Notes: a model not told the origin generated them from the sequence alone. Counted from the first letter of the stretch, positions 10,385 through 10,605 are shown. The stretch is 11,425 nt of DNA from Candidatus Thorarchaeota archaeon (GCA_003345545.1 PRDH01000022.1:1-11425); one strand, 5' to 3'. Translations and numbers: made by a program.

Positions 10385-10605
10385 GAACAGGTCAGTGGAA
10401 GGCTTGGATCATATATGCGTCTGAGCCCGCTCACTCCTGAGTTGTTTCGAACAGGTCAGTGGAAGGCTCACATCATACATGCATGTGGGCCTTATCACAC
10501 CCGACTACTTCGATGGGTCAGTGGAAGGCATCCATCTTAATGGCGAAGCCTTCTCACACCATTATTCGTAGATGATAGTGGAAGGGCTCGATTCTGCAGA
10601 CGGCC
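10385..10605. repeat. Array of four degenerate approximately 60-bp palindromic units (alternating inverted repeats)
   Basis: AGTGGAAGG core at 10394, 10458, 10520 and 10577. GAACAGGTCAGTGGAAGGCT is identical at 10385 and 10449. Inverted partners GCCNNNTCAC.CC occur at 10425, 10489 and 10548. Confidence 0.85.

Follow-up and report, generated by a model that had tools for sequence, protein, structure and literature searches.

A tRNA-Gly-derived hairpin array at an insertion junction in a Thorarchaeota genome

We analyzed a hairpin array in a window of 11,425 nt, which is the whole contig of a Candidatus Thorarchaeota MAG and the DNA of which occurs in wetland metagenomes. By comparing sequences across related genomes, we show that the units of this array are derived from the tRNA-Gly gene itself and that the array sits at an insertion junction, two points that had both been missed in the initial annotation of this DNA. 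Asgard archaea have large, cassette-rich variable regions, and this locus offers a concrete, repeatedly used joint (CCTTCCA-CTGACC) with a conserved hairpin module, at which the tRNA-Gly gene is replaced, not repaired. The units mark an integrase-less hot spot of gene swapping and, in our reading, would act there as DNA sites. Should they prove to be sites of recombination, a gene-capture system would be defined by them; if they are only scars, they still form a readable record of successive insertions and of earlier hosts' tRNA alleles.

Results

Layout and folding of the array

The array lies upstream of the 5' end of a tRNA-Gly(UCC) gene, just past its TATA-like box, and reads as three full hairpin units of 57-64 nt (10385-10567) followed by a fourth, partial one. 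Arm A (CAGGTCAGTGGAAGGC) starts at 10388 and 10452, its third copy (TGGGTCAGTGGAAGGC) at 10514 and a degenerate copy (GATGATAGTGGAAGGG) at 10571, which gives periods of 64, 62 and 57 nt; arm A' lies at 10425-10439, 10489-10503 and 10548-10562, and the linkers carry TTCG at 10446, 10509 and 10565. The initial annotation had described this same hairpin array, with these periods, an imperfect inverse A' alternating with A and a TTCG in each A'-A linker, and our reading of the sequence agrees with it on all of these points. Arm A is almost invariant over 14-16 nt, and arm A' is complementary to it only loosely. Unit 1 (10385-10448, plus strand; arm A 10388-10403, arm A' 10425-10439, linker with TTCG) has the apical stem TTGGA/TCTGA; unit 2 (10449-10510, plus strand; arm A 10452-10467, arm A' 10489-10503), which is orthologous to the first unit of the related genome G001, has the apical stem TCACAT/ATGTGG; and unit 3 (10511-10567, plus strand; arm A 10514-10529, arm A' 10548-10562) has the inner stem GAAGGC/GCCTTC.

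Taken singly, units 1-3 fold better than their shuffles on both strands (plus strand, z of -2.0 to -3.9; minus strand, z of -1.0 to -2.7), and the 'unit 4' sequence (10568-10625) does not fold as a unit in the shuffle comparison. A covariance model (R1) built from 14 units scores units 1-3 at 64-73 bits (64, 73.5 and 65 bits, respectively). The repeat families of the array were recovered by a repeat search of the window; Tandem Repeats Finder reported no array in the window because the units are too diverged. In Rfam, at E up to 10, the sole match was the tRNA, and the array had none.

The adjoining tRNA-Gly(UCC) (10246-10323, minus strand; ARAGORN; Rfam tRNA 59.9 bits) is intact, has an encoded CCA and is the replacement copy brought by the inserted segment described below. 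Its leader and promoter region, read from the sequence (10324-10384, minus strand), contains the TATA-like GATTTAAG at 10354-10361 and then GAGTGAACTCAC at 10372-10383, and a block GATTTAAGnnTATTG...AGTGnAC upstream of the tRNA is conserved in relatives. On the far side of the tRNA from the array lie a TnpB-family gene (8443-10116, plus strand) and an ORF of 1701 aa (3081-8186, minus strand) that matched no Pfam, NCBIfam or PADLOC profile; beyond the other side of the array is the stop codon of a membrane-protein ORF (10656-11423, minus strand), which matched no defense-system or NCBIfam profile. Just outside the insertion, window positions 177-2698 encode a topoisomerase IB of eukaryotic type (670 aa) together with a PIN-domain protein.

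Copy number, distribution and conservation

The genome-wide motif search that had been suggested at the outset finds one locus only in the 2.69-Mb genome. Exact copies of the 13-mer GGTCAGTGGAAGG occur only at the array's three places, a 15-mer with one mismatch allowed gives three matches vs. none for its reversed control, and an HMM of the linker plus the A half scores only the array units at E≤1e-4. One locus per genome speaks against the REP/BIME-like cluster that had been put forward, and no Y1 transposase/RAYT was found in this genome (PF01797, no match in G000, which is 93% complete, nor in G001, G089 or G091). The array had also been called non-CRISPR, rightly in our view, and we rejected a CRISPR array: the 'spacers' resemble each other, pair with the repeat, and have positional orthologues across genomes in a conserved order. 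Three further candidates were set aside, namely a replication-origin ORB reading, which was considered from the sequence and dropped; an intron or bulge-helix-bulge reading, for which the breakpoint falls inside a helix and not in a bulge; and a K-turn reading, for which the non-canonical stem would require a 4-nt bulge.

Searching the 28 same-genus genomes with the 15-mer (≤1 mismatch) gave matches in nine, two of these being chance matches inside genes; arrays are present in eight of the 28, with the window's own and single-unit arrays counted. No array is present in G041 and G010, and G015 has one array unit plus one chance in-gene match to the 15-mer. The covariance model, the building of which had likewise been proposed, recovers the units here as well as arrays in four further genera. 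Nearly all arrays lie beside tRNA-Gly(UCC) or its 5' fragments, and two short array contigs (G012:C354 and G099:C40) show no tRNA. Scans of the genome collection and of metagenomes with a 22-mer hit Thorarchaeota contigs only, plus one chance match in a bacterial gene (L097), and a 16-mer scan of IMG/VR returned 24 single matches, roughly estimated as no more than chance, none of them an array. Unit number is shown to range from 1 to 4 among relatives with identical flanks (four in the window, two in G001 and one in G017, with a flanking membrane-protein gene common to all three). From genome to genome, the units follow one order, with the TTCGAACAGG type first, the TTCGATGGG type next and the terminal unit last.

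Comparison of the units shows that one arm is strongly conserved in sequence and that the other arm and the apex keep complementarity only. The A core is 96% identical across all unit pairs (vs. 54% for the rest and 60% for A'), and positional orthologues agree at 137/140 positions in A vs. 66% elsewhere. In other genera, the conserved part is AGTGGAAGG with a different tail (CTRATANGTCC in tRNA sense), and the apical stems are of quite different sequence with their complementarity retained. Among 14 units from five genomes, 79.6% of cells pair vs. 35-53% when the partners are slid, and 16 cells carry double changes vs. 7.7 in shuffles (0/500); among 26 units from five genera, with the alignment fitted to the model, 76% pair vs. 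35-50%, and double changes number 40 vs. 15.7. Pairing and double changes thus exceed their controls, which supports the covarying stems and conserved asymmetry first claimed; homologues and covariation, the lack of which at a single locus was to refute that claim, were both found. The GAA of TGGAAGG is paired in only about half of the units, and therefore the complement of the anticodon tends to fall in an internal loop.

Units match tRNA-Gly alleles

In each unit, tRNA-Gly(UCC) positions ~18-37 are present in antisense, and at the anticodon loop they run into a conserved tail of non-tRNA sequence through the joint given above. Read in tRNA sense, a unit ends with ...(T/G)GAT-NNNNN-GCCTTCCA, which corresponds to the D-stem 3' strand, the anticodon-stem 5' strand and the anticodon loop, and the non-tRNA tail that follows is CTGACCTG-TTCGAA in this genus. 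In the same sense, the tRNA part and the tail are preceded by an inverted complement that is only rough, and each unit therefore repeats the fusion of anticodon loop and element end within an imperfect palindrome. The 14 nt located 5' of CTTCCA match real tRNA-Gly(UCC) alleles at a mean of 10.3 of 14 positions (26 units, 9 loci) vs. 5.0 ± 1.5 in shuffles, <0.1% of which reach 11. Moreover, linked variants (ATGATCC vs. AGGATCG) track two real tRNA-Gly allele types, which argues that different units come from different tRNA alleles and not from drift of one copy.

The tRNA-Gly(UCC) alleles themselves differ strongly within the genus, with anticodon-stem, D-arm and T-arm types in mosaic combinations. 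This mosaicism fits repeated replacement of parts of the tRNA-Gly gene, and all alleles encode the 3' CCA.

An older, split tRNA-Gly flanks the insert

The arrangement is most complete in G020. In tRNA sense, the NEP1/EMG1 gene comes first there, and then the old promoter with positions 1 to ~25 of the old tRNA. A segment of 1.1 kb separates these from old positions 22-37, which are fused as GGATCGCAGCCTTCCA-CTGACC and form the terminal unit; next are three full units, a promoter with an intact tRNA-Gly, a BNR-repeat gene and, at the end, ...GGTGAG joined to CCTTCCAAGCTTCC..., which is the old 3' half. ARAGORN calls a tRNA-Gly(tcc) when the three old pieces (displaced 5' fragment, terminal unit and distal 3' half) are put together, so that two partial tRNA copies flank the insert and together rebuild a tRNA, and the terminal unit is identical at 16/16 positions to an array-less tRNA allele. 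The terminal unit of G091 is a complete tRNA-Gly 5' half with its own promoter. In array-less relatives, tRNA-Gly directly adjoins the NEP1/EMG1 gene.

The window contains a more decayed version of this arrangement. The terminal 'unit 4' (10568-10625, minus strand) is a remnant of the 5' half of an older tRNA-Gly and forms the left junction; on the minus strand, it reads CGGCCGT..CTGCAGAATCGAGCCCTTCCA followed directly by CTATC, and it is joined to the inserted DNA after the anticodon loop. The degeneration that had been described as increasing rightward is therefore no decay of a repeat. A candidate for the displaced 3' half lies at 3036-3077 (minus strand), which would be the right junction, and its GCTCG is complementary to the stem strand CGAGC of unit 4. 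Because these two are complementary halves of an old tRNA, the ~7.5 kb between them appears, from the sequence, to be an insertion, and the putative inserted segment (3078-10567) comprises the 1701-aa ORF, the TnpB-family gene, the replacement tRNA-Gly and the array. ARAGORN called no tRNA on the window's joined old halves, which are too decayed and have the D-arm deleted. The 3036-3077 fragment looks like Gly(CCC); since its G001 counterpart reads CCTTCCAAGCTCG on an identical stem and T-arm, and CCTTCCAAG survives in the distal fragment of G001, this look probably reflects a small deletion in a UCC-type half, and not another isoacceptor, in a fragment that is a mosaic. The acceptor end of this fragment matches the UCC gene, and its variable loop resembles the CCC gene on contig C78.

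The gene order of the inserted segment recurs in G001, in G089 (another genus) and in G091 (a third genus). The composite of ~7.5 kb (3036-10625) is integrase-less and spans these three genera.

Cassette stacks, a reused breakpoint and searches for recombinases

In relatives, arrays are often embedded in stacks of integrase-less gene cassettes. Between the working tRNA and the NEP1 gene, the metagenome contig L094 has a stack of four or five gene segments. In L094 and the related contig L095, each segment lies between a terminal unit (ending ...GATCCTA) and the next 5' tRNA fragment (ATCCTAACC...), which in the L094 stack carries a promoter (ATCCTAACCAGG...). Because each segment is bounded in this way, each L094 segment is an insertion at the D-arm sequence TAGGAT of a displaced 5' half. 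Stacks of the same make-up are found in G012 and G015. The stacks (L094 2548-7830; L034, that is G012:C237; and L039, that is G015) encode a secreted repeat protein, ABC-transporter-like genes and small membrane proteins. No genes or ORFs separate the inner units of the arrays, and in the stacks the gene segments are joined at the D-arm TAGGAT and not at arm A, so that any part of the inner units in the exchange of cassettes is putative.

What follows ...ACAGGTCAG differs from place to place. In the units it is TGGAAGG and at window position 8414 it is the tnpB promoter; G063 has a fragment of the tRNA D-loop there, and G012:C237 has an unrelated gene segment. Since different partners follow it at different loci, the end of this sequence acts as a reused breakpoint.

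We found no element-encoded site-specific recombinase in the insert or on array contigs. Phage_integrase (PF00589) gave no match in G000 or G001, nor on the array contigs of G020, G015 and G012, in a search that was positive in all 14 control genomes; the same search found no IntI, and no serine recombinase/resolvase (PF00239) was consistently linked to arrays. Not even a XerA-like PF00589 match is present in G000 (93% complete) and G001 (97%).

Relation to TnpB

The motif shared with the tnpB left end (GAGTGAACTCAC ... ACAGGTCAG; 10372-10398, plus strand) ends exactly before TGGAAGG. The exact 12-mer and 9-mer of this motif are also found at 8385-8414, and a close variant occurs with a tnpB paralogue (G000:C16:25770-25802); the tnpB left-end region contains a hairpin, CTGACC-N6-GGTCAG. 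In an HMM comparison, the units had no significant match to the tnpB element ends. A likeness of the units to the tnpB right end or omega-RNA, hinted at in the window and G058, is missing from G089 and G091 and was non-significant by HMM, and we rejected it. Arrays occur without TnpB in G020, G015, G008 and G012, and the near-identical contigs L094 and L095 differ only by a TnpB right end, which in L095 adjoins the tRNA. Because of these TnpB-less arrays and this polymorphism, we conclude that TnpB is an independent insertion in the tRNA trailer and no partner of the array.

In the comparison of L094 (297-374) with L095 (7560-7724), the TnpB right end (GGAACACAGAAGTCGAAAG..GGGTTCACTCAC) abuts the 3' end of tRNA-Gly, and the two contigs are polymorphic for the presence of the TnpB element within the tRNA trailer. 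Paralogues of the tnpB element are located at G000:C16:24109-25837 and C81:16059-16270 (~75% identity), and, judged against the C16 copy, the window's tnpB element has its left end near 8350.

RNA contigs over the locus

The RNA data are assembled contigs from four metatranscriptomes, which give neither strand nor level and in which weak cover does not equal absence. Contigs from all four cover the 3' part of tnpB and the tRNA at a depth of 2.5-17 and stop at 10314-10356, at or close to the TATA box (at 10352 and 10356 in two studies). Over the array, two read-length contigs of depth 2 from one metatranscriptome cover 10398-10699. Strong expression of the array has no support from these contigs, yet it is compatible with them. 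Of the units in G089 and G091, one is placed after the TATA box and before the tRNA, so that at least this one is probably transcribed. RNA contigs also span the predicted omega-RNA region (window 9900-10356), with one 961-nt contig at a depth of 17.

Discussion

We tentatively read the units as cis-acting DNA junction repeats, attC- or att-arm-like, that would serve some recombination system; to this we give a little less than an even chance, and it leads the readings that we considered. The strongest facts behind it are the position of the array at the joint, the reiteration of the joint sequence, one invariant arm beside another that keeps only its shape, and a unit number that varies with identical flanks amid an integrase-less turnover of segments. 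A DNA segment carrying its own promoter and a complete tRNA-Gly(UCC) would have been inserted into an older tRNA-Gly(UCC) at the anticodon loop, with the array as its junction-proximal arm. We infer that the units would act as DNA, not RNA, as sequence- and shape-specific sites used either in duplex form or, like attC or CTX-phage attP, as a folded single strand. A putative recombination or repair activity would then join, delete and exchange segments at tRNA-Gly, and recombination between direct A arms would explain how units are gained and lost and why the breakpoint after GGTCAG is reused exactly. Several observations weigh against this reading: the searches for PF00589, PF01797 and PF00239 yielded no recombinase for it, the inner units are gene-free with segments joining at TAGGAT, no excised or circular forms and no strain-level rearrangement at the A arm were observed, and one G089/G091 unit is probably transcribed. 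In addition, the conservation of A is partly explicable if a fresh element end and tRNA loop are copied at each event.

That last point leads to the reading that we rank second, although we consider it unlikely, namely that the units are inert scars. Successive insertions into the then-functional tRNA-Gly would have piled up 5' halves, deletions would have shortened them, and the palindromy would have arisen incidentally through repair, for instance fold-back synthesis. Its rank reflects that it explains the match of unit interiors to different real tRNA-Gly alleles and the missing enzyme, and that it does not explain the uneven conservation. Longer pile-up modules do exist (whole 5' halves or fragments with promoters in G091, G063, G012, G015 and L094), and neither an enzyme nor expression was found, all of which suits scars. 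However, decay has not been uniform, with arm A and the linker near-invariant and the remainder at 54-66%; the order of three units is conserved between genomes and partly between genera; the hairpin is maintained by compensatory changes; and several deletions, independent of one another, would all have to have left 56-64 nt. The same compensatory changes would suit a structured RNA, which could be a tRNA-sense leader or read-through from the displaced promoter, possibly K-turn or box C/D-like, or a plus-strand transcript from a divergent TATA box. We regard this as improbable, more so than scars. On the plus strand, G.T pairs outnumber A.C pairs (24 vs. 15), which is a weak hint only; many units in tRNA sense read stem CAGG, GUGAnnA, CUGA and stem CCUG within 57-64 nt; the presumed leader of G089 and G091 contains one unit; and the two depth-2 contigs do touch the array. 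Nevertheless, the remaining contigs stop short of it and those two come from one run, Rfam has no match, and an invariant arm facing a sloppy one is not the pattern of a plain RNA helix. For the box C/D variant in particular, C' and D' are weak, the boxes are spaced by 10 and not 12 nt, and the 'guide' is paired in cis and of tRNA sense.

Two readings are still less probable. Phased transcription-factor sites controlling the promoter of the element-borne tRNA-Gly, to which we give little credence, would be in keeping with the position of the array, always directly upstream of the TATA box of the replacement tRNA, with that tRNA being the sole gene that always accompanies an array, and with the GAGTGAAC...GGTCAG motif also adjoining the tnpB TATA box; yet relatives that have no array express this tRNA from a similar promoter, units can also adjoin 5' fragments that are displaced and non-functional, and compensatory apical changes are unexpected for protein sites on duplex DNA. 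Least probable of all, and by our estimate very improbable, is a guide or antisense array, in which 17-18 nt of plus-strand unit RNAs complementary to tRNA-Gly alleles would direct TnpB or another nuclease so that the segment homes into an uninserted tRNA-Gly. TGGAAGG and the next 10 nt are indeed antisense to tRNA-Gly positions 22-38 of real alleles, and a TnpB/Cas12f-like gene lies upstream on the same strand in the window, G001, G089, G058 and G091. The guide array proposed for TnpB in the initial annotation nonetheless fares poorly in the face of arrays without TnpB, of L094 and L095 differing by a TnpB insertion only, of a unit likeness to the omega-RNA end that is inconsistent across genera, of a would-be guide that is base-paired in cis, and of RNA contigs that give no sign of strong expression. 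None of these readings accounts for the origin of the palindromy.

It has not escaped us that the junction repeats could be part of something larger. As a long shot, the array might be the working part of a self-propagating, integrase-less 'tRNA-replacing' Asgard cassette system, in which stored pieces of earlier hosts' tRNA-Gly alleles, presented in hairpins next to a conserved element end, would serve as recognition or homology modules, as folded DNA or as guide/antisense RNA, and would let a nuclease-driven process (through TnpB, the 1701-aa nuclease-like protein or another enzyme) break an uninserted tRNA-Gly and install the cassette with its own resistant tRNA-Gly.

With respect to known systems, box C/D sRNAs have C (RUGAUGA), D', C' and D (CUGA) boxes and single-stranded guides of ~12 nt. 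The units share with the archaeal members a length of ~60 nt, a terminal stem of 4 bp and, in tRNA sense, a box of GUGA type towards the 5' end with CUGA towards the 3' end; they differ in their weak C'/D', their 10-nt spacing and a guide region paired within the unit. Scored box by box, D is present in this genus, C matches at 3-6 of 7 positions and D' is absent, which does not make them box C/D sRNAs, and no target or expression was found for such a reading. BIMEs comprise hundreds of dispersed copies mobilized by RAYT; like the REP/BIME clusters of enterobacteria, the array has alternating inverted arms, two kinds of linker and a tandem layout, and unlike them it is confined to one locus per genome without a Y1 transposase. 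The resemblance to the ends of IS200/IS605-family (TnpB) elements lies in ~24 nt by unit 1 that recur in the tnpB left-end region and the C16 paralogue; however, the 5' arm of the end hairpin is absent beside the array, TnpA was not found and arrays occur without TnpB.

Partial tRNA genes (attL/attR) and tandem arrays from re-use of a site are attributed to Williams (2002) where that work is cited in PMC6563490, and archaeal cases of integration into tRNA genes are given in PMC6563490 and PMC8371274. As in such scars, the older tRNA-Gly is split at the anticodon loop, its halves flank the insert and fragments pile up. In contrast to them, the array locus lacks an integrase, the split tRNA is not rebuilt from an identity block and is replaced by a complete element-borne tRNA with its promoter, and hairpin units of 60 nt, in which one arm is under selection, repeat the junction. 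In the literature that we searched, we found no description of a tRNA that is replaced rather than restored, nor of a tRNA-derived hairpin module repeated at a junction, nor of the conservation of such a module across genera.

The closest analogy for the units may be attC-like sites. The R''/R' core boxes of attC read RYYYAAC ... GTTRRRY. By eye, we recognized no R''/R' boxes in the units: GTT/AAC is present in one linker type only (GTTCGAAAC, tRNA sense), and the others are without it. The inner units also have no ORFs between them, IntI was not found, and the units are tRNA-derived and tied to one tRNA gene, with the stack joining at the D-arm TAGGAT. What the two have in common is a set of imperfect hairpins with conserved asymmetry, a variable center and conserved ends, together with stacks of small gene cassettes that usually have no integrase nearby. 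Fragments of tRNAs at sites of integration and, in Asgard archaea, attC-like clusters are both known already (PMC6563490, PMC9668308), and integrase-less attC clusters (CALINs) are reported to be enriched in these archaea (PMC9668308).
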